Of a DNA stretch of 32,902 nucleotides, positions 8,492-22,198 are shown piece after piece (within the stretch, counting starts at the first letter, position 1; each line of letters starts with the position of its first letter). The notes under the pieces are model-generated. The model saw nothing but the letters and a program-made list of their open reading frames with translations. It did not search any database and was not told where the DNA came from. Made by a program: the position numbers and the translations under genes. The stretch comes from Elusimicrobiota bacterium (GTDB lineage Bacteria; Elusimicrobiota; Elusimicrobia; F11): the NCBI GenBank assembly GCA_046153645.1, contig JBJXGI010000079.1, positions 1 to 32,902 of the forward strand. Reading direction: 5' to 3'.

Positions 8492-8564
8492 TGGAGCTGA
8501 TCGGGATTGAACCGACGACCTCCTGCATGCCATGCAGGCGCTCTCCCAGCTGAGCTACAGCCCC
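8492..8564 (-). tRNA. tRNA-Ala (GGC), CCA not encoded
   Basis: GGGGCTGTAGCTCAGCTGGGAGAGCGCCTGCATGGCATGCAGGAGGTCGTCGGTTCAATCCCGATCAGCTCCA: full cloverleaf, G3:U70 alanine identity pair, anticodon GGC, followed by CTT rather than CCA. Confidence 0.98.
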
Positions 8565-8637: not shown

Positions 8638-10542
8638 TTATTTTGATTCAACATAGGGAACAATTCCATTAAATCCAGAAGCACCTGGAAATATTCTTTT
8701 CTGTTCTTCGATTGTTTGAGACAGAATGTCGATGATGGGCGGTGGGTTTGCCCCTAAGGTGGCCCCTCCAAAATTTCGAGCACTTGCAGAGGGTGAAATG
8801 GAGGCCGGAGTTATTTCCATTTCACCTTTTGCTGGTACCGCACCTAAAGCAATAACACTCAGACGCCATTTTTCAGGATCGCCTTTTAAAATTGATCGCG
8901 GAACAGAAACAGAAAGCGTATTTGAATTTGGAGTGATGGTTGATAAAAGTTTTAATCGACGTGGTGAAGCATTTGATAGTGCTTGAAATAAATGGGCTTG
9001 GCCAGGAATCAAATTGAGCGCATATTCCCAAGCGGCATTTTTGTCGATGGAAACAGCTCCTCTGTTTTTAAGAGGTGTTGTGTTTCCCGCTCCAGAAACA
9101 CGATTTACATCAATATAAACATCGAAGAGTGGTTGGAGAATGGTTTTTGCGCTAACAAAAGGTCCTTCCGTCATTATTGAAAAAGTAATCTGATCTTCAT
9201 CCCACGAAATCGAAAATTCTTTAATATCAAAAATCCCTTTATTATTCCCTCCGGTTGGATAAGTGAAGTTCCCTGGTCCAAAATCATCTTGAGATAAATC
9301 ATTCCAAGTTGATTTTTGATTTCCGCTGGTAAAAAAAGGTTTATCACTTGCAGAAGGCATATGAGGCTTTACATAAGTGTTATTTATTTTGGGATTATAT
9401 TGTTCCGAAAACGACCGATTCAAATAAGGCGGTATTGGTAAACCACAAAGTCGATAGACATTGCTGAGGGTGGCTAGAAAAGTTCTTTCACTATTGGGAA
9501 TAAGTACATCCGTTTGACCCAACGCCAGTAAAAAATCTCCAGCTTGAGCTTGATAAAGTTCCTCGAGCGCAGAATCAAGCCTCTGTAAGTTCGCTGTTCC
9601 AGAATTTTTATATTTTTCAATATTAGACCTGGCTTCACTTAAGCTGTACCAAGCGCGCTTTTGTTGCGGAGTTTGGATCCAAAGACTAAAGTCGTTTTCG
9701 AACTTAAAATCTTTGTCATTGATGATCAATTCTTCTGGAGCCGTTTCAGTTAATTCTATACCGGTTTGAAACTGTGCATTATCCAGATTAGCGCGTTTAC
9801 TTATTTGGGTTAAAAACGCCAAATCGGAAGCTGGATCATCACGCAAAGAAGAATCTACCAGCGCAAAGGGTCTTTCTAGGGCCCAAATGGCTGTCTCTTT
9901 GGCCCAATTATCAGTTGAAATAGACGGGTCTAAAAGAGGTTGAGGTTCTGATACAACCAACCCCATTCCCCCAAAAAATAAAATACCCCATTTATTATCA
10001 GGTTTTGAAACAATCCAATTGATTCTGAATCTTTTTAGAGAATCAATAACATCAACAGATAAAGCCAAATAGGGAGGATAAAACCCATTAGGCTGCTGTA
10101 ACCATTCTTTTTGAAATCGTCCGCTGCCTCTGGCTATTTGAGCGGCGATATCATCAGGCCAAATATAATCAAAACCCCACTTTAAAACGCGGTCCCCGGC
10201 CTGACTTAAACGCGATAAAAGCGGTAAATTTGGCTCATTATTGAGAGTTAATGCCACTTCTATTTGCCCAGAACTCTGAAGAACCCTAAACTTCTGAAGG
10301 GTTTCTTTGCGTTTTGGATCTGTGAAATAGCGTGCTGGAAAAATAAGGTTAATTTTTAAAAAAGGTTTGGTTGAGAGAAACTTCTGAATCTGATCTGCAT
10401 CTCCCTCTGGGTGCAAAACTAAAAATATTGACCAGTCATGGGGTGTAGAAACAACACGCGGTTGGTCTTCAGAATGAATTCGAGCACAGACAAGATTTAA
10501 AACAAAAAAAAGTCCGAGAAATATATGTTTTTGAGATTTCAT
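8638..10542 (-). CDS. Exported GH57-like (degenerate) protein with C-terminal glucodextranase DOMON-like domain
   Basis: Signal-peptide-like N-terminus. GQIEV...PNLPLL...DIAAQI...PNGFYPP resembles the GH57 amylopullulanase core. DDFGPGNFTYPT...FDIKEF...YID...AWEYAL resembles the glucodextranase C-terminal DOMON domain. Confidence 0.75.
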   Translation of the reverse strand: MKSQKHIFLGLFFVLNLVCARIHSEDQPRVVSTPHDWSIFLVLHPEGDADQIQKFLSTKPFLKINLIFPARYFTDPKRKETLQKFRVLQSSGQIEVALTLNNEPNLPLLSRLSQAGDRVLKWGFDYIWPDDIAAQIARGSGRFQKEWLQQPNGFYPPYLALSVDVIDSLKRFRINWIVSKPDNKWGILFFGGMGLVVSEPQPLLDPSISTDNWAKETAIWALERPFALVDSSLRDDPASDLAFLTQISKRANLDNAQFQTGIELTETAPEELIINDKDFKFENDFSLWIQTPQQKRAWYSLSEARSNIEKYKNSGTANLQRLDSALEELYQAQAGDFLLALGQTDVLIPNSERTFLATLSNVYRLCGLPIPPYLNRSFSEQYNPKINNTYVKPHMPSASDKPFFTSGNQKSTWNDLSQDDFGPGNFTYPTGGNNKGIFDIKEFSISWDEDQITFSIMTEGPFVSAKTILQPLFDVYIDVNRVSGAGNTTPLKNRGAVSIDKNAAWEYALNLIPGQAHLFQALSNASPRRLKLLSTITPNSNTLSVSVPRSILKGDPEKWRLSVIALGAVPAKGEMEITPASISPSASARNFGGATLGANPPPIIDILSQTIEEQKRIFPGASGFNGIVPYVESK

Positions 10543-10721
10543 TATTGCGCAGATAAACTATGTAAATAAATCCCAGTTGTGCCGCTTCTGAGTTGCAGCA
10601 ATTCATTTTTTACCTCCGCCCCTTCTTTTCTGGATTTCCAAAAAAGAGATACAGAAATCCCAATGAGAACAAGAGATAAAAGCGAAGATAATATGATGAG
10701 AGTTATTTTCTGAGAGGACAT
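10542..10721 (-). CDS. 59-aa single-pass membrane protein (not in the ORF track)
   Basis: MSSQKITLIILSSLLSLVLIGISVSLFWKSRKEGAEVKNELLQLRSGTTGIYLHSLSAQ*. Its TAA overlaps the next ATG (TAATG). Confidence 0.7.
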   Translation of the reverse strand: MSSQKITLIILSSLLSLVLIGISVSLFWKSRKEGAEVKNELLQLRSGTTGIYLHSLSAQ

Positions 10722-10744: not shown

Positions 10745-10777
10745 AAAAAAACCTCTGAAATTTAAAGCTTGAGAGGC
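10745..10777 (-). terminator. Possible weak intrinsic terminator after the PilZ gene
   Basis: Minus strand GCCUCUCAAG-CUUUAAA-UUUCAGAGG followed by a run of U: imperfect stem plus U-tract. Confidence 0.35.
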
Positions 10778-10805
10778 TGCAAATTATAACTTATTAACTT
10801 TGCTT

Positions 10806-11303
10806 TTAAAGGGCTTGAATCGCAATTTCAAATGATTGAAGAGAACTTCTTTCAAGGGATTTGACTCTGAATGGTTTACGGCATAGCTGATGGAAAGAGC
10901 AAGACACATCACACCACGGGACCATTTGTTGCAACCGATCTTCGCAGGCCCCGTTATCCTCGACCATTGCTTTGATTTCTTTTCCGAATTTACCAGCACT
11001 TTTTAAGAACTTGACACCTAAAAAATCGCCTTTTTTGAGAGAAAAAACGTGCAAAATCTTTCCAGAACAATGGACAGGATGTTTTCCAGGGATTCTAAGG
11101 TGAAGTGTAATTTTCTGGCCTTGTTTAATAGGCTTTTCATTCAAGGAATTAAGCTGCAGTGACATTCCTCCTTCAGAAATATTGACCAATTGGGCATAGA
11201 GAGTTTCCCCTATAAAGGGCATCACCGGGAATATTTGAACTTGCACTTTGATGGATTGGTCAATACGTAATCTTTGATATGTTCGGCGATTAACAGTTTT
11301 CAT
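10806..11303 (-). CDS. PilZ-domain (c-di-GMP-binding) protein with C-terminal four-Cys motif
   Basis: RRTYQR (RxxxR) and NISEGG (D/NxSxxG) motifs. Tail CEDRLQQMVPWCDVSCSFHQLC. Confidence 0.88.
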   Translation of the reverse strand: MKTVNRRTYQRLRIDQSIKVQVQIFPVMPFIGETLYAQLVNISEGGMSLQLNSLNEKPIKQGQKITLHLRIPGKHPVHCSGKILHVFSLKKGDFLGVKFLKSAGKFGKEIKAMVEDNGACEDRLQQMVPWCDVSCSFHQLCRKPFRVKSLERSSLQSFEIAIQAL

Positions 11304-11306
11304 AAT

Positions 11307-12236
11307 TTAAAATCTGAATAATGCGCCGTAACGGAAAGTGTTTCCTAAATCCCCAAATGGAACCCAAGCAAAATTAAGTTCTAGCTGCTTTATTCCAACA
11401 CCCGCACCCAGTGAAATTCCATGGGCCCCATCTGGACCAGTGGTTTCAGAAGAATATCCTGCGCGTAAGGCGGTCGAAAAGTCTTTGCCGATGGGTTGAA
11501 TGTACTCTGCGCCAAAGCCATATTGAACATCGTTATCGCGAGGTTTTCTTAAATCTGTGGCCAAAACTAATTTATCTGAAAAAAACCTATGGGCAGCTCC
11601 CACATCAAAAGTCAAAGGTTGTGGATCGCTTTCATCTATAAATTTTATTTCAGGTCCAAAATGACGAACAGCAAACCCAAATGAAAGAGGTCTGGAAGCC
11701 ATTTGATAACGTAAACCTAAGTCACCACTCATTGCTTGGGCAGATTCTGTATCAATTTCTTCTTTGATATACCGAAGAGTTACTCCAGCCGCCAAATTAT
11801 CGATAATATTTCGCCCATAAGACAAAGCATAAGCCGCATCAAGATTCTCAAAGGTTCCTAAATCTGATTCATCATTTCCTCTTTTTTGTATATCACTTGC
11901 CTTAAGAGTCGCCGCAGAAATCGCAAACGTTCCAATTCCCGTAGGCACTGCAAAAGCTCCAAAATCATAATTTAAATTTTGGAACCACTGCGTGTGCATG
12001 GCCGTCATTTGACTCTCTTCAATCAAAGCCAATCCGGCGGGATTATGGTGAACAGTATTTATATCATCGGCAATCGCGACGAAGGCCTCTCCCATCGCCG
12101 TCGGGCGCGGGCCAGAACCAATTCTTAAAAATGACGCGCCACTGGTTCCAACATTTTTATTCGCAGCAAAAGCTGAATTTACTTGTACTATAAAGAGTGC
12201 AAAGAACCCTATTAAGAGGCGATTAAAATTAATCAT
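11307..12236 (-). CDS. PorV/PorQ-family outer-membrane beta-barrel
   Basis: Signal peptide (AFA), GASFLRIGSGPRPTAMGEAFVAIADDINTVHHNPAGLA family signature, amphipathic strands, C-terminal Phe (YGALFRF). Confidence 0.88.
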   Translation of the reverse strand: MINFNRLLIGFFALFIVQVNSAFAANKNVGTSGASFLRIGSGPRPTAMGEAFVAIADDINTVHHNPAGLALIEESQMTAMHTQWFQNLNYDFGAFAVPTGIGTFAISAATLKASDIQKRGNDESDLGTFENLDAAYALSYGRNIIDNLAAGVTLRYIKEEIDTESAQAMSGDLGLRYQMASRPLSFGFAVRHFGPEIKFIDESDPQPLTFDVGAAHRFFSDKLVLATDLRKPRDNDVQYGFGAEYIQPIGKDFSTALRAGYSSETTGPDGAHGISLGAGVGIKQLELNFAWVPFGDLGNTFRYGALFRF

Positions 12237-15200
12237 TTAAGCACCGCCATTTTAAAGAACTTTTCCTTATTACCTATTTCTAATCGAGCAATATAAGTTC
12301 CCGAGGCGACTTTTTCGCCCTTCTCATTTTTCCCATTCCATTCCAAGTAGTAATGTGTTCCTGCTGTTGGGATGTTTATTTTTAAGGTCTTTATTTTTTC
12401 ACCCAACACATTAAATATTTCCACCTCTGCGTCTCCCGTTAAATCAGGTGGGATACTCAACTTAATAAGAGTCCCCTCAATATTTTGAGTACTCGAATTT
12501 GACCCTGGGTTTTGAAGTGTAACGGTTTTTTGTTTTAGATTAAATGGATTTGGAAAATTGAGAACAGCCAATTCACCAGTGTACCCACCTGAACCCGTCA
12601 GAACAGATGAACTAGATGAAAAGACGGTAAAAACAGACGCATGCCCAATATCAACGCATATCCTTTGATTTTCTGTATCAACAACTTTATTCTGAGATTC
12701 AATGACGTATTCATTCGTTTCAGGATTGTAATAATAAACGTTGAGCTTTCCCGCATCTGAATCTGAAATAGTTGAGTCGTAGGATAAACAAAGCGTCGCT
12801 TCTTTCCCTTTTGGAAAAAAGTGGTTAACGCCGGCTGGCAATGTTATTTGAAGGAAATCGCCTAAGGGATCAGCCGCCAAAGTACCCAATCGAGAAAGAG
12901 CAGAAGCCATTTCACCTGGATAAGCCTTAAGACCTACTTTTTTTGTCAATCCAAGTACACCTTGGCCCGAAGCTGAATTTAATTCATCTAATGTTCCTGC
13001 CAATGCCATAGAAATATCAAAAGAGAGATTGGTATTGTTACCAAATGTTCCAGTAACAGTATTAAACTCCGTTTGGTCAATTTGGATACTGGATTGATAG
13101 GAATTTTTAAAGCTACCTTCTTTTAACCCTTTTAAACCGTTAAAAAACTCGACATCTTCGTCAACTGTATAATTGGTTTGAGTTAGAGGATTTTCTTTTT
13201 CATAAGTAGCATTAACATGAAATATGACTTTTGAATCATTGGCTGCTGGTGTATAAGTTGCAGTCAAAGATTGCCGATCGGACCCCAGGGCTTCGATAGA
13301 GTCAATGCTTAATGTCCCGTTTCCTTGTGACAAACTCAAAATTTCCTCAGCTGTGTCATCAAGTATTCCATCACTATCATTATCAATGACGTCTGAATTT
13401 CGAAGTGGCGTAGAAAAGAAAAACTGAAGAGAAATATCACTCCCATTTTTTGAAAAAGTATGGAAAAACTCTGGCGTACTCTTTTTAAAGGTTAATTGAA
13501 TTCCGCTTACGTTATTGGCAGGCATTGTTAAACTGTCAATTGTCGTTACATCAGAATCATTTTCTCCAACAGAGATAACTTTTGTTGCCCCCTCTTGAAC
13601 ACCCGTAATTTCCCAAGACAAAACAGTTCCATCGTCATCGGTGGTTAAATTACCAATAGCAAGTGAATCAACAAAATCATTTCCAAAAGCAATCAATTGG
13701 CCCACATCGTTCTGATTAATAGGGGATCCATCTTCACCAACAATACTACCGCTGGCCGTGTACCCAGTATTGAGCGTGATGGTTCCCAGGTTATTTTCTC
13801 CTTGTGTTAAAACGATATTACCGAGAACTTTTGTTCCATAACCTTTTGCAATCGCAAATAATTTTTCTATGTTGGTTCCTGATTTTAAACCTGTTAGAAC
13901 AAAGTTCCCACTGGCATCTGTCTCCGTTTCATGGTTTCCAAGAGGGTTATCAGTGAGTGCCTCGTTGGCGACCCTTGCGACAACGCTACTCCCTTTTCTG
14001 TCAACTTTAGTATCTCCAAAAGGAACAATAGGATCTGGACCTGCTGGGTCGGGCTTTACAACTGTTCCTGTAATATACGCATCGGCCACCTGGAGTTTAA
14101 AATTAACCCCAGGACTTACATTGGGCGCTTTAACATGAATTCTTTTTTGCTGAACATACAACAACCCATCAGAACCATCAGTCCCATCAAAATCATCTGG
14201 TCTTCTTGAGGGGGCAACTGTAATGTCGTAGTAAGAATTATTTTTCAAGCCATTCAAAGTATATTTACCCAACTCATCTGATATGGCGGAAATAAAAACT
14301 TCATTTCGATCATCTTGAGCTGTAACAATAATATTGGGCAAGGGGAGATTGCTGCTATCGGTTATCTCTCCGGTGATAGTAACGCCTGGCTCTAAATCAA
14401 CTGGAAAAATTTTTGTTTGACCAGCTTCGAGTTTAAATCCATTAATTGTTTTATTGACATAAACTTGTTTACCTGATGCCACATCAGATTGAGATGGGGA
14501 TCCGTGCTGCCCTAATGCAAGGGCACAAGGAACATTGGGCGATAGAGATAAACTGTAATAACCATCACTATTAATTGCTTTAGCTCTGGCAAAAGTATTG
14601 TTTTCACAACGAGCTTCAATGAAAAAAGAATTTGATAGCACATCACCTGCATTGCTTGAGGTCACAATTGTTCCGGATTTACTGTCGCGCAACTGCAATA
14701 ACAATTTCGCAATTTTTTGGAGTGGTATTGATTTTCCTGATACGTTTGTCGCAGCAACCTGAACTGGGATACCAATAGATGTGTATTTCGCCTGAATTGA
14801 TGGCGGGGCTTCTTGTTCCACAGCGCGTAACGTATACAATCCTGGCGCTACTCTCGGCATTGTAAAAGGTTGAGATGTCCCTGAAAAAGATATTTCTGTT
14901 TGATTTAGAGTTCTTTTATTTTGCTCTAAACTAATAGTGATATTTCTTGTGTTAGTTTCAGGATCACTGGGATCCTCCAAATCAACTGTTCCACTAATAG
15001 AATAACCAGATTCCAGTTGAACAGTTAAACCTGTAACAGCATTATCAAAAACTTCAATAAATTGTTTTGCGTTAGCGGCTTCTGGACCATCTGAGGAATT
15101 ACCATTGAGTTCAACATTCGCAGATAGTTCATAGACTCCTTGAGGAATGGTCCCTGAAAATTGACCTGAAGCGTTAAAAGGCATAACAAAAAAGTTATTA

Positions 15201-17233
15201 AAATCATTAAAATTATTTGGCCCACTCATGTTATTAGCAAAATTTCGATTAAACGCTTTTTTGAGAACAATATGACCAACAGGGTATGTTCTCGAAGAAG
15301 AGTCAAAATTATAATAGGTAAAAGTAAAAGTACTGGAAGTAATATTTGAAATTGTATAAAGACCACCTACAGTTGAAGTGACAGTTCCCGATACCAAACG
15401 AGATTTTTTAAATTGTGTTGTTATGTCTTTCTCCACGCCATTTTGAGCTTGGAAATTTCCTTCATAAAAGTCTAATGTGGTGTTCTCTAACCCTCTAATG
15501 GTTACAAAACTTGTGTTTAATTTATTGAAACAAAAAGCGCCTGATCCATCGGGAATTTTACTTCTCACGCCTTGCCCATCCGGACCAAAACTCATTAACT
15601 CCATTCTTACATTTGACATGGTAAATCCGGGGCTTCCAGCTGGAGGAACAACTGTCCCACAAATATCTCCCGTGTTTTCATTTAAAACGATATTTTTTGT
15701 TCCTATGCCTCCGGAGATAGTGACATTCATAGGGCCGGGTGGATTAACTTGAAAACCAGGAAGATATGTCCATAAATTATAAGTGCCATCTGCTAATCCT
15801 GAAATTTGATAAGAGGATGTTGTTGAGGTTGGATGAGGCGTTAAATTAGCTTCTATATATCCACCCGATTGAGTGGCTTGTAAAAAAACAGAAACAGGAA
15901 CTTGAAAAGGATTGGGGTTAGTGGATGTATCGCCATTCACAGTAATGCTCCCACTCAGTATTCCCCCTTTATCGAAAATAGGGAAATTAATTCCGCCAAC
16001 ATCAACATTTGAAACATTCGCGCGAATATTTGAGGAAATGAAACCTTGAGAATAGGCTCTAATAAAATATTTCACCACTGTCGCACTAGCAGGAACGGAA
16101 ATCGAATAAGGGGCTGACGTGGCAGCTGGAGAAAAGCTCGTTCCACCGTAAAAGTTTTTATTGGGGTCTGAAGTATCACACTTACTATCTTCATTTTGAT
16201 CAACACAAGCATGCAACCATGCGTGCATTCCACTAGGATTATCAAGAGAAGCAACATTTAAAATCCCTGATATTTCTGGAAATTTAGCCAGTGTGATGGT
16301 TTGATCTGTGTTGGTTGTCAAATTTACGGTATAGGGAGCGATCCCATATCCAGGAATAGAAACACGAATATTATAAAGAGTACTTGCTCTTAAAAAAAGA
16401 TCAATATGAGGAGTGGGCGTGACATTCCAGGTATCCCCTAAATCTGCGGTTATAGAAGAACTGGCAAATCTAAAAGGTGATGATGTCTGATAAGAATATG
16501 TATTTGTATAGGCATCAATATGACCAAATCGCTCTGGTAACGAACCAGCTGATGGTCGCAAAACAGTCAAACGATATCGTATTCCTGGTTCTAATGTGAC
16601 ATCCCCTAAATCATTGAGCGCCACATTTGATGTGAACTGCAAATTTTTCTCTAAATAACCATTTCTTGATAATTTAAATGAATAGGACTGCCCTTGTTTT
16701 AACCCATAGATAGTGGCATACCCAGATGGATTTGTGAATTTTGAATCATAAAAATTAGCACCAAAAACTTCTAAACGTGCACCTTCAAGAAAAGTAGCCA
16801 GGTTATTTTGATCTACTGCGCGTATTTGAACTCCATTTGTTACTGAGACCGCTGTTAGTTGACTATTTGAATCAATCACTGACCCAAGAGAATTTCTAAT
16901 GATAATATTAATATTATAAGTCCCCGGGTCTCCATAGCTATAACCTTGCCCGGGAATATTAACTCTTCCGTTCCATGGAATCCTCACCGAGGAATTCGTT
17001 CCTGCAAAAAAATCGACAGGCATGCTTAAACGCTCTATTTGAACTTCCCACGAATTACCTACACCAGCATTAAAGTTAATAAAAACTTCATCAGAAGTAC
17101 CATCACCATCAGGAGAAAATGTTGCCGACAATGACGATCCCAACGTTCCCGTGTCAATGGTTGGCGTTATTGCTCTGGCAATACTGGCAACCGACAGGAA
17201 AAAGATAAACGAAATTATTTTTTTAATATTCAT
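12233..17233 (-). CDS. Giant secreted protein (~1666 aa) with carboxypeptidase-regulatory-like beta-sandwich repeats and FlgD-Ig/T9SS-like domains
   Basis: Signal peptide MNIKKIISF...ARA (start moved from 17317 to 17233). Repeated I.G.V...G.Y...GL..G.Y units. N-terminal FSPDGDG...WNG...PGTY. C-terminal NFPNPFN...IFNVLGEKIKTL...WNGKNEKGEKVASGTY. Confidence 0.88.
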   Translation of the reverse strand: MNIKKIISFIFFLSVASIARAITPTIDTGTLGSSLSATFSPDGDGTSDEVFINFNAGVGNSWEVQIERLSMPVDFFAGTNSSVRIPWNGRVNIPGQGYSYGDPGTYNINIIIRNSLGSVIDSNSQLTAVSVTNGVQIRAVDQNNLATFLEGARLEVFGANFYDSKFTNPSGYATIYGLKQGQSYSFKLSRNGYLEKNLQFTSNVALNDLGDVTLEPGIRYRLTVLRPSAGSLPERFGHIDAYTNTYSYQTSSPFRFASSSITADLGDTWNVTPTPHIDLFLRASTLYNIRVSIPGYGIAPYTVNLTTNTDQTITLAKFPEISGILNVASLDNPSGMHAWLHACVDQNEDSKCDTSDPNKNFYGGTSFSPAATSAPYSISVPASATVVKYFIRAYSQGFISSNIRANVSNVDVGGINFPIFDKGGILSGSITVNGDTSTNPNPFQVPVSVFLQATQSGGYIEANLTPHPTSTTSSYQISGLADGTYNLWTYLPGFQVNPPGPMNVTISGGIGTKNIVLNENTGDICGTVVPPAGSPGFTMSNVRMELMSFGPDGQGVRSKIPDGSGAFCFNKLNTSFVTIRGLENTTLDFYEGNFQAQNGVEKDITTQFKKSRLVSGTVTSTVGGLYTISNITSSTFTFTYYNFDSSSRTYPVGHIVLKKAFNRNFANNMSGPNNFNDFNNFFVMPFNASGQFSGTIPQGVYELSANVELNGNSSDGPEAANAKQFIEVFDNAVTGLTVQLESGYSISGTVDLEDPSDPETNTRNITISLEQNKRTLNQTEISFSGTSQPFTMPRVAPGLYTLRAVEQEAPPSIQAKYTSIGIPVQVAATNVSGKSIPLQKIAKLLLQLRDSKSGTIVTSSNAGDVLSNSFFIEARCENNTFARAKAINSDGYYSLSLSPNVPCALALGQHGSPSQSDVASGKQVYVNKTINGFKLEAGQTKIFPVDLEPGVTITGEITDSSNLPLPNIIVTAQDDRNEVFISAISDELGKYTLNGLKNNSYYDITVAPSRRPDDFDGTDGSDGLLYVQQKRIHVKAPNVSPGVNFKLQVADAYITGTVVKPDPAGPDPIVPFGDTKVDRKGSSVVARVANEALTDNPLGNHETETDASGNFVLTGLKSGTNIEKLFAIAKGYGTKVLGNIVLTQGENNLGTITLNTGYTASGSIVGEDGSPINQNDVGQLIAFGNDFVDSLAIGNLTTDDDGTVLSWEITGVQEGATKVISVGENDSDVTTIDSLTMPANNVSGIQLTFKKSTPEFFHTFSKNGSDISLQFFFSTPLRNSDVIDNDSDGILDDTAEEILSLSQGNGTLSIDSIEALGSDRQSLTATYTPAANDSKVIFHVNATYEKENPLTQTNYTVDEDVEFFNGLKGLKEGSFKNSYQSSIQIDQTEFNTVTGTFGNNTNLSFDISMALAGTLDELNSASGQGVLGLTKKVGLKAYPGEMASALSRLGTLAADPLGDFLQITLPAGVNHFFPKGKEATLCLSYDSTISDSDAGKLNVYYYNPETNEYVIESQNKVVDTENQRICVDIGHASVFTVFSSSSSVLTGSGGYTGELAVLNFPNPFNLKQKTVTLQNPGSNSSTQNIEGTLIKLSIPPDLTGDAEVEIFNVLGEKIKTLKINIPTAGTHYYLEWNGKNEKGEKVASGTYIARLEIGNKEKFFKMAVLK

Positions 17234-18434
17234 AAGTGAACCCAAACTGATAGTTAGAATTGTTGTAGTTATATTGATATACAGCTTCATAATCGTTATT
17301 TGATCTGGTCTGTCCAAAATTAGATTGAATTTTTGCTCTAAAATGTTTTGCTATGGGGTAACTAAAACCGAGGTTTACCATAGAATCGGTGATAAATAGT
17401 TTTTCATTCTCATTGTAATTTCCAGCCACCGTTTGGATATGCCTGTTCAAGTAGTTCTTATGTGAATAGCTATATCCTGTTTCTAAAATAATGGGACCGG
17501 CTTGTGGACCTTTAATACCCAATGAAAATTGCGCGCCAACACTTTTCACATCATAAGAATAATAGTCGTCATTAAACCTTGCCACTCTGGCATCATAGTT
17601 ATTTTGATTTGAAGAGAAATTTGTATACCCCATATTCAAACGTGAGGTAAAAATACCCCAATGTCCAAAACCCCAGCGCTTGTCAATTCCACTCGTGAGA
17701 CCGGAATAAACATCGTTCCTTTTTGATGCGGTTAATAAACCACTTTTATTAACAATTGTTTGGTCTGTATAAAAACGTGGAGAGTAAACAATATTCATTT
17801 TTAAACCAAACCCAAAAAACAAAGGCAATTCAGTACCCAATGAAAAAACATGAATATAATTATCAAGCGGGTTTTCAGCTGAAAACTCCCTGGCCAAATT
17901 ATCTTGTGAGGCTTCTAACGATTGATAATTAGGAAATTTCAAAAATGAAAAATCATAGGCGAGTGCTAATTTTTTCTTTTTTCCCCAACTATATTCTCCC
18001 TCTAAACCTCCGGTAAAAGTTCTGTAATCATAAAGGCCTTTATTCCAATTTTCATCAGATGTTTCTCGGTACCATTTTTGTCGAACTCCCATACGTTCTT
18101 TTAGTTTAAAGCCTTTTTGGTTATTTTGAATTGCTTTTATATTAATGGCATTATCCCAGCTATCTTGGAAAAGAGTGTTTCCCCCGGCTAATTCTTCAGC
18201 AGACCTTGTCCCTCTATATTGACTTTCGACATTTGAAATGAGTGAATTTTTTTCAGAAAATTTTATAGCAGGAATGAAATTAATTCCTACATTTCCGCCC
18301 AAACCGCTTTTCTCCCCTTCAAAATAATACTGACCTGTGTAGAATTGACCATTAATAAGAGGAATATATTCCGCGCTAAAGGCAGAACCCACTAAAACCA
18401 TAGATAAAATAAATGAAATTATGACGTTTTTCAT
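17223..18434 (-). CDS. Putative outer-membrane beta-barrel protein
   Basis: Signal peptide (AFSA), Tyr/Asn/Gly-rich alternating strands, C-terminal beta-signal-like NYQFGFTYEY. Confidence 0.78.
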   Translation of the reverse strand: MKNVIISFILSMVLVGSAFSAEYIPLINGQFYTGQYYFEGEKSGLGGNVGINFIPAIKFSEKNSLISNVESQYRGTRSAEELAGGNTLFQDSWDNAINIKAIQNNQKGFKLKERMGVRQKWYRETSDENWNKGLYDYRTFTGGLEGEYSWGKKKKLALAYDFSFLKFPNYQSLEASQDNLAREFSAENPLDNYIHVFSLGTELPLFFGFGLKMNIVYSPRFYTDQTIVNKSGLLTASKRNDVYSGLTSGIDKRWGFGHWGIFTSRLNMGYTNFSSNQNNYDARVARFNDDYYSYDVKSVGAQFSLGIKGPQAGPIILETGYSYSHKNYLNRHIQTVAGNYNENEKLFITDSMVNLGFSYPIAKHFRAKIQSNFGQTRSNNDYEAVYQYNYNNSNYQFGFTYEY

Positions 18435-20176
18435 TTCAAGAGTCCCGATTCAATCAACACTTTAGGAGTAATGCATAAATCGATTTTTCTCCCACTAAAT
18501 TCTGTGGCAGTAATAACTGTTTCAAAATTCCATTTCATTAACTCATTTCTATAATCAGCTCCATTGGAAAGCCCTGAAAAATCATCTCTTGTGGCTATTT
18601 TTCCCTCATCATTAATAATGTAATTATCAAAGCGCAAATATTTTCCGTCTGCGTAATAAAGCGTATTCCGGCTATAAAGAGTATCGCTTCCACTTGGATA
18701 CTCTGATGCAGCAGTCACAGGCGCATAATTAAATGTCCCATCTAAATCTTGAGCCAAAATATGTTGCCCCACTGTTGAAGGTTCATATTGAGTTTTAATG
18801 GAACTATTGGCTTTCAAAGTATAGTTATCAAAAGAATTTTTCCAAAGCGTATCGGCGGAAGTTAAATTTCTATATTCGGACGTGGTAGGATCTTGAACAG
18901 AAACTTTTTTGGCTGATTCTAAATTGGCTGGTGTCACCAGAGAAAATGTATCGGTATCAGGATTATAAACTTTATAATTGCCATCACTTAAGAGTTCTGC
19001 AGCATCAATATCTCTTGTGTTGGATGTTACTGTTGGATCGGTTAATGTATAAGTATTTCCATCATTTGTAATTTGTACGAGATGCCCTCCACTGGCTTCA
19101 TCCGTTAATGAGTCAATTGTGTTTGATCGAATTTTTTCGTAAGCCGTGAGGTAGTATTCGGGCGCTGTGCCTCCAATTTTTCCATTTAAGTCTCTTAAGG
19201 CGAGTGATAGATCCTCTGGTAAAGATTTATTAAAGGTTCCTTTATAAGTAAAATAATCAAAACGTGACTCTCTCTCGTTTAAAACAACCAATTTAAATTG
19301 ATCTGAAGCAGGACGTGTAATGTACTCTTCCGTTCGAACTCGTAAACCATTAACATCCATGAAAGTTTTAGCTTCTTGATAATCCGCCGTCTTTAATTCT
19401 TCCGCGGCCATAGCGATTAAATTATCTTTGACTTGTGTATTCATGACTTCAGATTGAACCGCTTCTTTATCAATAATCTGTTGTACGCCAGTCGATTTAA
19501 CAGGGTCCCCCATTTGGCCTTCTATTCCAAATTTAATACTTTCACCGCCATTAACCATAACCTCATTTGATAAGTCACCCAACTTTGCAACAACAACGGA
19601 GCCTTCGTTAACATCGACTTGCATGCTTTTGCCATCATCAGTAATTTCGACTTCGAAATCTGTTCCTCTTACGCTGGCTACGCCAATGGGCGTTTTAATT
19701 TTGAAATTATTTCCGCCTTTTATTTTTGACACGATGGCGCGAACGCGTCCTTTAAGAAGTTTGATCGTTTTTTCAACTGTAGAAAGATTCTCTACTTCTG
19801 CTTGAGAATTTTGTAAGAGTAAAATTTTTGAACCATCCGATAGCTTAACGCGCGCCAACGATCGAGATCCGGTTTTAATTTGATCATCTTTTTGAAGTTG
19901 CGATTGGTTTTTTGCTTTATCCCATTTAGTCGCATTGCTTTTTTTGACCTCGACTTGACGTGTTACTGATTCTATCGCACCTATATTGGGATTATTTTTT
20001 AGGGAAATAGCAGACCGGTTCGACAACTTCCTGGAGAGGGATTTTTTGGATATCGTTTTTGAATTTAATGGCGCAGCATCAACCTGAACTGTCAAAGTCC
20101 ATGTTAAAACAAATGCGACGAGGAAAGAAAAATAAGAAATTTTCTGTTTTTGAAAAAAAGCTGCCTTTGTACCCAC
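18431..20176 (-). CDS. Exported FecR-domain protein with a large uncharacterised C-terminal region
   Basis: IKTGSRS...LSDGS...LLKGRVRA...KTPIGVASVRGTDFEV is a FecR-domain signature. The GTG at 20176 is preferred over 20182 because it lies 5 nt after an AGAGG SD. Confidence 0.85.
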   Translation of the reverse strand: MGTKAAFFQKQKISYFSFLVAFVLTWTLTVQVDAAPLNSKTISKKSLSRKLSNRSAISLKNNPNIGAIESVTRQVEVKKSNATKWDKAKNQSQLQKDDQIKTGSRSLARVKLSDGSKILLLQNSQAEVENLSTVEKTIKLLKGRVRAIVSKIKGGNNFKIKTPIGVASVRGTDFEVEITDDGKSMQVDVNEGSVVVAKLGDLSNEVMVNGGESIKFGIEGQMGDPVKSTGVQQIIDKEAVQSEVMNTQVKDNLIAMAAEELKTADYQEAKTFMDVNGLRVRTEEYITRPASDQFKLVVLNERESRFDYFTYKGTFNKSLPEDLSLALRDLNGKIGGTAPEYYLTAYEKIRSNTIDSLTDEASGGHLVQITNDGNTYTLTDPTVTSNTRDIDAAELLSDGNYKVYNPDTDTFSLVTPANLESAKKVSVQDPTTSEYRNLTSADTLWKNSFDNYTLKANSSIKTQYEPSTVGQHILAQDLDGTFNYAPVTAASEYPSGSDTLYSRNTLYYADGKYLRFDNYIINDEGKIATRDDFSGLSNGADYRNELMKWNFETVITATEFSGRKIDLCITPKVLIESGLLK

Positions 20177-20187
20177 ACACACCTCTA

Positions 20188-20285
20188 GACTTCGGTAGCC
20201 CGGCCCACCTTTATTGATTTTTCAACAGTCGGTGCCTCGGCTTTGCGCCTCTTCGTTTACACGAAGGTTGCCCTTTATCACGTTC
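20188..20285 (-). ncRNA. Cyclic di-GMP-I (GEMM) riboswitch
   Basis: Minus strand GAUAAAGGGCAAC-CUUCGU-GUAA-ACGAAG-AGGCGCAAAGCC...GGGCUACCGAA: conserved GGCAA, GNRA-capped P2, CGCAAAGC junction, P3 hairpin (AGCC/GGCU, GGC/GCC, ACC/GGU, UGUUGA/UCAAUA) and terminal UACCG. Located in a 5' UTR. Confidence 0.88.
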
Positions 20286-20311
20286 TAAAAGTTACAGATA
20301 AAGATCGATTG

Positions 20312-20340
20312 AATATAGACGAGGAGAATTAAAATTTCAA
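20312..20340 (-). promoter_or_regulatory. Sigma70-type promoter for the riboswitch-led operon
   Basis: TTGAAA (20340-20335), 17-bp spacer, TATATT (20317-20312), about 25 nt upstream of the aptamer. Confidence 0.6.
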
Positions 20341-21709: not shown

Positions 21710-22198
21710 TTAAACAACTTTTTGGAAAGTAATATGAATTTCTTTATTTATGGGAGTTGAGTTATCAATAATATTTTTTTGTTCTTTGCTACATAAAGAG
21801 AAAAAAGCACAAGAATTCCGACATATATTCGACTCTTGTTTTTGAATCCTATTTTCACAATCAATAAACTCTGAAGACATTTGGTTTATTTTATCTGACA
21901 ATTTTGAATCAATTTTGATGAATTCAAAACCATAAAGTGTCTTTTTACCGTTGGGTCTAAAATGTCGAAGTTCAACAATAGCTTCTATTAATGTTCCATC
22001 TGAAAATTGAAGGGCTAAGTGAAGCAAAGTATTTTGAGGAAGATAACCATTTATGTTAACAGACATGCCACCCGCAGAGAGATCTATTAACTTTCCTTTT
22101 AAGGTTGACCCAAAAAAGGGAGGAAGAGGTGTTATATAAACCGGCGTATTTAAAAATGCCGTAGCGGCAAATCGCTTATGTTTTCTTTTTTCAGTCAT
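21710..22198 (-). CDS. PilZ-domain protein with C-terminal four-Cys motif (paralog of 10806..11303)
   Basis: KRKHKR (RxxxR), DLSAGG and YGFEF motifs. Tail CENRIQKQESNICRNSCAFFSLC. Confidence 0.88.
   Translation of the reverse strand: MTEKRKHKRFAATAFLNTPVYITPLPPFFGSTLKGKLIDLSAGGMSVNINGYLPQNTLLHLALQFSDGTLIEAIVELRHFRPNGKKTLYGFEFIKIDSKLSDKINQMSSEFIDCENRIQKQESNICRNSCAFFSLCSKEQKNIIDNSTPINKEIHITFQKVV

Follow-up and report, generated by a model that had tools for sequence, protein, structure and literature searches.

The 32,902-nt contig JBJXGI010000079.1 of an Elusimicrobiota bacterium (GenBank assembly GCA_046153645.1), the whole of which is called the window here, carries on its minus strand, at positions 10,806..20,340, an operon of five genes that is headed by a predicted cyclic di-GMP (c-di-GMP) riboswitch and that encodes, in order, a secreted FecR-domain protein, an outer-membrane β-barrel of 403 amino acids (aa), a very large exported protein (hereafter the cargo), a barrel of the PorV/PorQ family and a cytoplasmic PilZ-domain protein. 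The reading we favour, to which we give about an even chance, is that this operon is a c-di-GMP-gated module that places the cargo on the cell surface by a reduced route resembling the Bacteroidota type IX secretion system (T9SS). It is carried by the C-terminal tail of the cargo, which has the features of a T9SS sorting domain and is predicted to bind the PorV-like barrel encoded directly downstream, and by the recurrence of such gene pairs through the genome, an assembly of 2.63 Mb that is 99.7% complete and whose closest named relative is Candidatus Obscuribacterium magneticum, also of the Elusimicrobiota. All the elements named in a preliminary description of this DNA were found where it had put them, and we note below where our findings depart from what it made of them.

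In the mechanism that we propose, binding of c-di-GMP would alter translation initiation of the first gene, and coupling between the genes would pass the effect down the operon. The cargo would leave the cytoplasm by Sec. Its most likely way across the outer membrane would be a SprA-like giant barrel, of which the genome encodes one copy outside the operon, while its tail, which is like those of type A T9SS substrates, would be captured by the PorV/PorQ-like barrel. As no PorU-type sortase was found, the tail would probably stay uncleaved and bound, anchoring the cargo as PorQ holds PorZ. A periplasmic adaptor (the FecR protein) and its outer-membrane partner (the 403-aa barrel) would make up a conserved accessory pair, which we infer may aid the translocation or anchoring of this cargo, and the PilZ protein would sense the same messenger a second time.

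The cargo and its partner barrel

The cargo gene occupies 12233..17233 when counted from the ATG at 17233, which opens a typical signal peptide and gives a protein of 1666 aa; a TTG start would give 1694 aa (12233..17317). The protein is a Ser/Gly/Thr/Asn-rich chain of diverged β-sandwich domains, for which family scans report CarboxypepD_reg and, at the C-terminus, FlgD_ig (27.7 bits) and CHU_C (22.3 bits, cut-off 27). Neither these scans nor a PDB sequence search, which returned only FlgD (E 0.014, at the tail), showed a catalytic or known binding domain. It had been described as a giant repeat protein, and this was not supported: the gene has no DNA tandem repeats and the protein no significant internal repeats (best i-Evalue 0.041).

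The C-terminal domain (CTD) that had been proposed for the cargo, by contrast, was borne out. This T9SS type-A-like tail (12236..12610, with the motifs NFPNPF, VASGxY and FKMAVLK in that order) reaches 25.0 bits against TIGR04183 (cut-off 23) when its 125 residues are searched in isolation; a scan of the whole 1694-aa protein does not list that model at E<=0.01. Twelve orthologues share 22 invariant columns in the tail, among them NFPNPF, VASGxY and the terminal K-x-A-V-x-K. The gene that follows, at 11307..12236, encodes an outer-membrane barrel of 309 aa that belongs to the PorV/PorQ family by a wide score (NF033709, 176.5 bits; cut-off 90) and falls below the equivalog cut-offs of both PorV (NF033710, 80.2 against 250) and PorQ (NF033711, 91.7 against 220), with weak matches to Toluene_X and UPF0164.

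To these two proteins we applied structure prediction, co-folding the tail with the mature PorV-like barrel from 12-row alignments of each, in three runs and with three controls. The tail is predicted to bind its cognate barrel: ipSAE was 0.94 in 3/3 runs while the best control gave 0.00, with a partner pLDDT of 92 and at least 95% contact agreement between runs. In calibration, 116 of 157 solved complexes and 2 of 215 mismatched pairs attained the mark for this score, figures that are no more than roughly valid here, custom alignments having been used. Invariant parts of both partners take part in the predicted interface: NFPNPF, VASG and C-terminal FKMAVLK on the side of the tail, N-terminal GTSG..FL and the R119 loop on that of the barrel. 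The co-folding that the preliminary description had suggested as a check on its claim thus came out in favour of a tail–barrel complex.

Hidden Markov models built from the tail and PorV orthologues were then run against all open reading frames (ORFs) of the genome. Fourteen ORFs carry the tail at their C-terminus, and 8 of these 14 are succeeded by a same-strand PorV-family gene at a distance of -3 to +2 nt; a ninth has its PorV-family gene at 233 nt, and a 4107-aa ORF with an internal tail-like match only has one at 4 nt. The pair of cargo and PorV-like barrel is a genome-wide module, not peculiar to the operon in the window, and the rule seems to be that each cargo has a partner barrel of its own. 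The PorV family is large, with 14 matches above the cut-off and 23 in all in this genome, and is expanded in all 41 of the related Elusimicrobiota genomes over which homologues were counted, mostly to 8-29 members each and to 2-3 in a small-genome family. In a complete related genome (G032:C1:2185000-2232000) at least 11 large ORFs in succession each end with a tail matching the CTD part of the PorU model, which suggests a tandem array of CTD cargos.

A reduced set of type IX secretion components

Components of the T9SS itself were searched for in five Elusimicrobiota genomes, the window's own and four relatives. The motor proteins GldM (TIGR03517) and GldL (TIGR03513) were each found in none of the five, while the same searches succeeded in all four Bacteroidota genomes that served as positive controls. 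GldN was found in 0/5, and GldK had no match in the window's genome and a single sub-threshold match in one of the five, these two models being outside the reach of the GldM and GldL controls. PorU (NF033707) was matched in the five genomes solely at model positions ~950-1095, its own tail domain, and nowhere past the cut-off. Because the GldL, GldM, GldN, GldK and PorU searches were negative while the GldL and GldM controls worked, the presence of a canonical T9SS is, on this sequence evidence, largely refuted, although very divergent homologues could still be missed. The preliminary description had noted that no porK/L/M/N or sprA lies in the window; elsewhere the genome does encode a SprA-like protein.

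This protein, of 1801 aa and encoded on another contig (C100), matches TIGR04189 at 88.7 bits (E 1.5e-25; cut-off 200) in three colinear stretches and SprA_N at 26.0 bits (cut-off 27). It is essentially single-copy and occurs in 39 of the 41 relatives. Its gene (C100:29459-38556) is divergent from lptF/lptG, and on its other flank are genes for a 472-aa protein that matches the PorV family weakly and for a TPR protein. Given this single-copy SprA-like protein outside the operon, the module probably does not stand on its own, and the earlier claim that it is self-contained becomes doubtful.

The riboswitch and the ends of the operon

By its match to the RF01051 covariance model (Infernal), the element at 20191..20282 is a canonical c-di-GMP-I (GEMM-I) aptamer at the head of the operon, scoring 50.9 bits (gathering score 35; E 2.7e-7) over model positions 1-87 of 87, and binding of the ligand is predicted. 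Its alignment has a G at the GGC position and CC within the 3' CCGAA; this G and the C of CCGAA may correspond to the ligand-contacting G20 and C92 of Vc2, the first of which is A20 in cGAMP-sensing variants. A Shine-Dalgarno-like AGAGG and a likely GTG start (20176..20186), identified from the sequence and an alignment of relatives, lie 5-15 nt past the aptamer, so close that the ribosome-binding site begins 5 nt beyond its end, and in the relatives a purine-rich stretch and start codon follow the CCGAA end at ~10-25 nt. Because the start codon abuts the aptamer and no terminator was found in the interval between them, the expression platform would act on translation rather than on termination.

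A candidate closing helix over the ribosome-binding site, in which 5' CUUUUAGA would pair with 3' UCUAGAGG, was rejected, the flank duplex energies being no better than those of shuffles; the same was found for the flanks of 13 PorV-linked riboswitches (mean z -0.24). Enforcing the aptamer during folding left the predicted accessibility of the Shine-Dalgarno sequence unchanged, and the folding favoured neither an ON nor an OFF switch.

The riboswitch recurs ahead of the FecR gene in 9 of the 19 orthologous operons whose upstream DNA was examined, with aptamers that are homologous to the window's and at the same place. In seven of the nine the match attains the gathering score (the window, L027, L033, L034, L038, L064 and G006:C227, the last with a FecR gene between riboswitch and barrel fragment that is inferred from spacing), and in two it stays just short of it (L083, 34.8 bits; L087, as the variant RF03167, 32.9 bits). 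Of the class's 30 riboswitch loci with the highest scores, 13 have a PorV match, one a FecR match and one a match to the tail in the ORF that comes first downstream.

Promoter and terminator had both been proposed, and both fare less well. The sigma-70-like candidate TTGAAA-17-TATATT (20312..20340) lies ~30 nt upstream of the aptamer and, with 10/12 matches, is the joint best site in the region, but sites of this kind, taken together, are no commoner than in shuffled sequence (28 found, 29.3 +/- 5.4 expected), and on that ground we regard it as consistent with promoter function and do not call it a dedicated promoter. At the other end a hairpin followed by seven U can be seen by eye after the PilZ gene (approximately 10745..10778); the terminator scanner found none there, and the hairpin (-6.8 kcal/mol, z -0.65) is equalled or bettered by 45 of 200 shuffles, so that a terminator downstream of PilZ is weak and possible at best.

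Conservation of the operon

The five genes are as tightly coupled as had been described, with overlaps of 4, 11 and 4 nt and then a gap of 3 nt when the third gene is counted from the ATG at 17233. Their order was followed in a sample of 21 loci (L013 and L027-L046). The FecR gene adjoins the barrel gene in 17 of the 21, a giant ORF comes next in all 15 of the loci that have downstream DNA (14 by phmmer, L038 by ORF size only), and a PorV-family gene follows the giant in 10/10 loci where the 3' end of the latter is available. The core of FecR protein, barrel, cargo and PorV-like protein recurs across the class. In the remaining four loci, all of one family (f4: L036, L041, L043 and L044), the barrel stands alone. 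Directly after PorV, a PilZ gene is present in 3 of the 10 complete relatives' loci, the closest relatives only, and in five loci (L028, L029, L030, L031 and L034) PilZ lies ~1.4 kb upstream instead. Gene order is hence conserved in the core, but not at its margins, where the riboswitch is absent from 10/19 operons and the 3' PilZ from 7/10. Within its own genome, the operon in the window is the one instance of a CTD and PorV pair that comes with a FecR gene, the 403-aa barrel, PilZ and a strong riboswitch. As to the sample, L013 and L014 are the two ends of the 184,798-bp contig JAJAPZ010000001.1, in opposite orientation and with identical match coordinates, which looks like a palindromic assembly artefact.

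PilZ proteins and the wider c-di-GMP context

The last gene of the operon (10806..11303) encodes a PilZ protein of 165 aa (PF07238, 44.3 bits) in which both motifs of the domain, RxxxR (RRTYQR) and (D/N)xSxxG (NISEGG), are present and conserved in alignment, making it a candidate second, protein-level reader of c-di-GMP. A second PilZ paralogue (21710..22198, minus strand) lies outside the transcription unit, from which FKBP and TatD genes separate it. After the PilZ domain, both paralogues and their orthologues have an invariant C-x2-R-x(7-8)-C-x(3-4)-C-x-F-x3-C-x-K, a four-cysteine motif that may be a metal-binding module. The proposal that one messenger is read at both the RNA and the protein level fits the full-length aptamer and the intact PilZ motifs; a trailing PilZ is present in only 3/10 loci and a riboswitch in 9/19.

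The genome has 11 GGDEF matches. On contig C71 (51365-55701) two GGDEF genes stand directly upstream of another CTD and PorV-like pair, with a 4-nt overlap, and add a further genomic link of c-di-GMP to such pairs. On contig C81 (1667-12600) a sub-threshold c-di-GMP-I match (32.8 bits) heads a series that encodes, in order, a PorV-TPR fusion of 592 aa, a FliG-M/C and TPR protein of 648 aa, two proteins of 583 and 1080 aa without a family, MotA (269 aa) and MotB (232 aa). Together they may be a motor that is not flagellar and has a link to barrels of the PorV type.

From these elements a bolder reading can be assembled, which we regard as tentative and somewhat unlikely: that the Elusimicrobiota run a distinct, streamlined relative of the T9SS, with a short SprA-like pore shared by many cargos, a type-A-like tail on each cargo and a PorV/PorQ-like barrel for each as its own permanent anchor, no sortase, a flagellum-derived rotor and stator headed by PorV-TPR in place of PorLM/PorKN, c-di-GMP control at three levels, and the FecR protein and 403-aa barrel as a new cargo-specific adaptor for translocation or anchoring. 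The three levels would be riboswitches that stand before both motor-linked PorV-TPR genes and cargo operons like the one in the window, diguanylate cyclase genes that adjoin further pairs of cargo and barrel, and PilZ proteins, which might act on the FliG-like rotor as a brake or clutch in the manner of YcgR in flagella.

The FecR-domain protein and the 403-aa barrel

The FecR-domain protein (18431..20182; PF04773, 66.5 bits) has 583 aa, or 581 aa from the GTG at 20176, which the alignment with relatives favours as the start, with AGAGG ahead of it. It consists of a signal peptide, a FecR β-sandwich, a long helix and a C-terminal β-rich domain of ~320 residues (AlphaFold2 model, pLDDT 83.4). 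Residues 92-239 superpose on the cell-surface-signalling domain of PupR (Z 17.6, root-mean-square deviation 2.2 over 133 residues), and the domain also matches BDI_1681 (Z 16.4). For the C-terminal domain the Atlas gave no usable match, and VIA-align gave only partial barrel sheets at Z ~8. The protein has no anti-sigma domain and no transmembrane helix, its N-terminus being a signal-peptide-like helix followed by a disordered linker.

The barrel (17223..18434) is modelled with ~16 strands (AlphaFold2, pLDDT 87.4), has no Pfam or NCBIfam family and, like the FecR protein, is single-copy in the genome by phmmer; homologues occur in 34 of the 41 related genomes, and Pfam OMP_b-brl matches 5 of 19 relatives of the protein. 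The identities that had been given to the FecR, outer-membrane barrel, PorV-like and PilZ proteins all stand, the second of them by its model and the others by their family scores. A structure comparison with VIA-align over 48,161 chains places OprP and chitoporin (Z 19.7), with OprB, among the best matches, and the Omp85 and two-partner secretion (TPS) barrels CdiB (Z 18.1), FhaC (17.3) and TamA (17.1) close by. The predicted fold resembles porins and Omp85/TPS barrels about equally and does not discriminate between them; Foldseek reached a TM of at most 0.47, and a profile search of PDB sequences returned generic barrels only. In the Atlas, 19% of the members of its structural neighbour cluster (TM 0.70) are SlipAM, which is a lead only, and the identity that this would suggest, a Slam or type XI barrel (PF04575, SlipAM/DUF560), was rejected, as a search at E<=10 gave no match to that model for any of the 19 family members.

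It is against this background that the operon could be seen as a self-contained unit, in which the 403-aa barrel, assisted by the FecR protein, would serve the cargo as its own outer-membrane translocon or usher, with the PorV-like barrel to anchor it and no need of a SprA-like pore. The translational coupling of the two genes (4-nt overlap), their adjacency in 17/21 loci and their constant position upstream of the giant ORF fit such a role, as do a strand number shared with the TPS and Omp85 barrels among the matches and the partly SlipAM neighbour cluster. The likeness of the FecR domain to that of PupR (Z 17.6) points the same way, since the PupR domain docks on an outer-membrane protein. 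Yet porins score as high or higher, the barrel lacks a POTRA domain as well as a Pfam family and none of its 19 family members matches SlipAM; the genome's other seven CTD and PorV pairs do without such a barrel, which in family f4 stands alone among housekeeping genes, and a 16-strand pore would be narrow for a folded multi-domain cargo. We consider this reading unlikely.

The resemblance to porins could also be taken at face value, the porin-like and FadL-like barrels importing a substrate that the FecR protein senses in the periplasm, with the cargo as a factor for binding or degradation at the surface. Specific porins (OprP, chitoporin and OprB) do head the list of structures that the barrel matches, PorV-family proteins resemble FadL, with weak Toluene_X and UPF0164 matches, FecR domains classically sense transport events, and a GH57/glucodextranase-like gene lies just downstream of the operon. 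But the FecR protein here has neither an anti-sigma nor a transmembrane part and no gene for an extracytoplasmic-function (ECF) sigma factor nearby, the cargo shows no domain for catalysis or known binding, PorV-like genes are systematically paired with CTD genes (8/14) and the interface of tail and barrel is confidently predicted, so that uptake or sensing seems decidedly unlikely. Hardly credible, finally, and largely refuted is the view that the genome has a full canonical T9SS at another place and that the cargo is one of its ordinary substrates, which would suit the type-A-like CTD, the PorV-family barrel and the SprA-like protein but not the lack of GldM, GldL and GldN (0/5 each) and of GldK in a genome 99.7% complete, nor a PorU model matched through the tail domain only, when the same GldM and GldL searches are positive in 4/4 Bacteroidota.

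Points that weigh against surface display by a T9SS-like route

The reading that we favour, a c-di-GMP-gated module for surface display through a reduced T9SS-like route, has its own difficulties. The SprA-like protein, its proposed pore, is under the curated cut-off (88.7 against 200 bits) and had no match at E<=1 among PDB sequences. The search for an energy source of translocation was negative, GldL and GldM being found in none of the five genomes. The sequencing runs listed as containing the locus are four DNA runs of one biofilter study, with no RNA run among them. The score of the tail–barrel complex may mirror a likeness to solved PorV complexes and not the binding of this particular pair; the SprA-PorV structure 6H3I appeared among the VIA-align matches, and structures of substrate-bound PorV complexes have also been solved. 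Across nine pairs, the distances between CTDs correlate weakly with those between their PorV partners (Mantel r 0.34, p 0.10, not significant). On the side of regulation, the helix proposed to occlude the ribosome-binding site does not outdo shuffles over seven FecR-linked riboswitches (mean z -0.35), 10 of the 19 operons have no riboswitch (upstream stretches, no match at E<=1) and 7 of the 10 complete relatives' loci have no trailing PilZ. The link of the 403-aa barrel to secretion, lastly, is not obligatory, because the barrel family also stands alone among housekeeping genes, as in L043, where the homologue lies between leuA-like and histidine-kinase genes.

Neighbouring genes

Upstream, the operon is flanked by the TatD and FKBP genes and then by the second PilZ gene; there is no sigma factor gene among them. 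Downstream, the interval from the weak terminator to the GH57/glucodextranase-like gene (8638-10542) contains a small ORF of ~59 aa with a hydrophobic stretch (10543-10721, minus strand), and past that gene is a tRNA gene (8492-8564, minus strand). Synteny extends to these wider surroundings too, as tRNA matches of equal score occur close to the orthologous operons of L028 and L030.

Comparison with known systems

A literature search found no paper that joins the Elusimicrobiota, type IX secretion, a c-di-GMP riboswitch and PorV-like elements, which agrees with the preliminary description in that it knew of no system of this architecture; PMC7031533 and PMC12204202 name the T9SS in their reference lists alone. 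Its parts can nonetheless be set beside several known ones. The FecR protein shares the FecR β-sandwich fold with the anti-sigma factors FecR and PupR and differs from them in having a cleavable signal peptide in place of the cytoplasmic anti-sigma domain and transmembrane helix, an additional 320-residue β-rich domain for which no family was found, and no adjoining gene for a sigma factor or a TonB-dependent transducer.

With the T9SS of the Bacteroidota the operon and its genome share a Sec signal peptide combined with a C-terminal β-sandwich sorting domain scoring above the TIGR04183 cut-off, a barrel of the PorV/PorQ family for which binding to that tail is predicted, and a putative giant barrel related to SprA. 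The differences are as marked. The phylum here is the Elusimicrobiota, whereas the T9SS literature consulted places the system and its CTD signals in the Bacteroidota alone, a review stating that CTD proteins are restricted to that phylum (PMC10202324); the PorL/M motor, the PorK/N ring and the PorU sortase were not found in the genomes searched; and the SprA-like protein has 1801 aa and stays below the family cut-off. The type A CTDs of the Bacteroidota all use one PorV, as another study has it (PMC12618676), while 8 of the 14 cargos here bring their own PorV-like gene.

In this last respect the type B CTDs of Flavobacterium johnsoniae come closer, as their cargo genes are described as linked to a dedicated barrel that is needed for secretion and localisation (PMC12618676; PMC9143113). 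As with those cargos and their PorP/SprF-like shuttles, the cargo gene here is linked to a dedicated barrel gene, but the barrels are of the PorV/PorQ family and not PorP/SprF, the tail is type-A-like, with CHU_C at 22.3 bits below its cut-off of 27, and the pair would operate without the rest of the T9SS. For the fate of the tail the nearest parallel is PorZ, whose CTD is retained and bound to PorQ, and the review that describes this suggests that cognate PorV-like barrels may shield a CTD from cleavage (PMC10202324). The operon and its relatives allow a test of the idea that such barrels protect and anchor uncleaved tails. More broadly, the three most substrate-proximal parts of the T9SS, a type-A-like tail, a PorV/PorQ-like partner and a SprA-like barrel, occur here in a distant phylum in which motor, ring and sortase were not found, and would provide a natural minimal system for asking what the core of tail, PorV and SprA does alone.

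Riboswitch control of surface factors has its counterpart in Clostridioides difficile, for which c-di-GMP riboswitch control of surface-protein genes has been reported (PMC6200980). Both have a GEMM-type aptamer in the 5' leader of genes for surface factors, which here are predicted ones. In contrast with C. difficile, the regulated unit in the window is an outer-membrane display operon with a PorV-like and a novel barrel, the first start codon comes so soon after the aptamer that control of translation, not termination, is implied, and a PilZ protein is encoded in the riboswitch-headed operon itself. With 15 of the 30 best riboswitch loci directly preceding PorV-family, FecR or CTD genes, c-di-GMP riboswitches would gain a new class of regulated target, and the operon is best described as a variant that combines T9SS-like sorting with c-di-GMP riboswitch control of surface proteins, both known in other bacteria, and not as a categorically new system.

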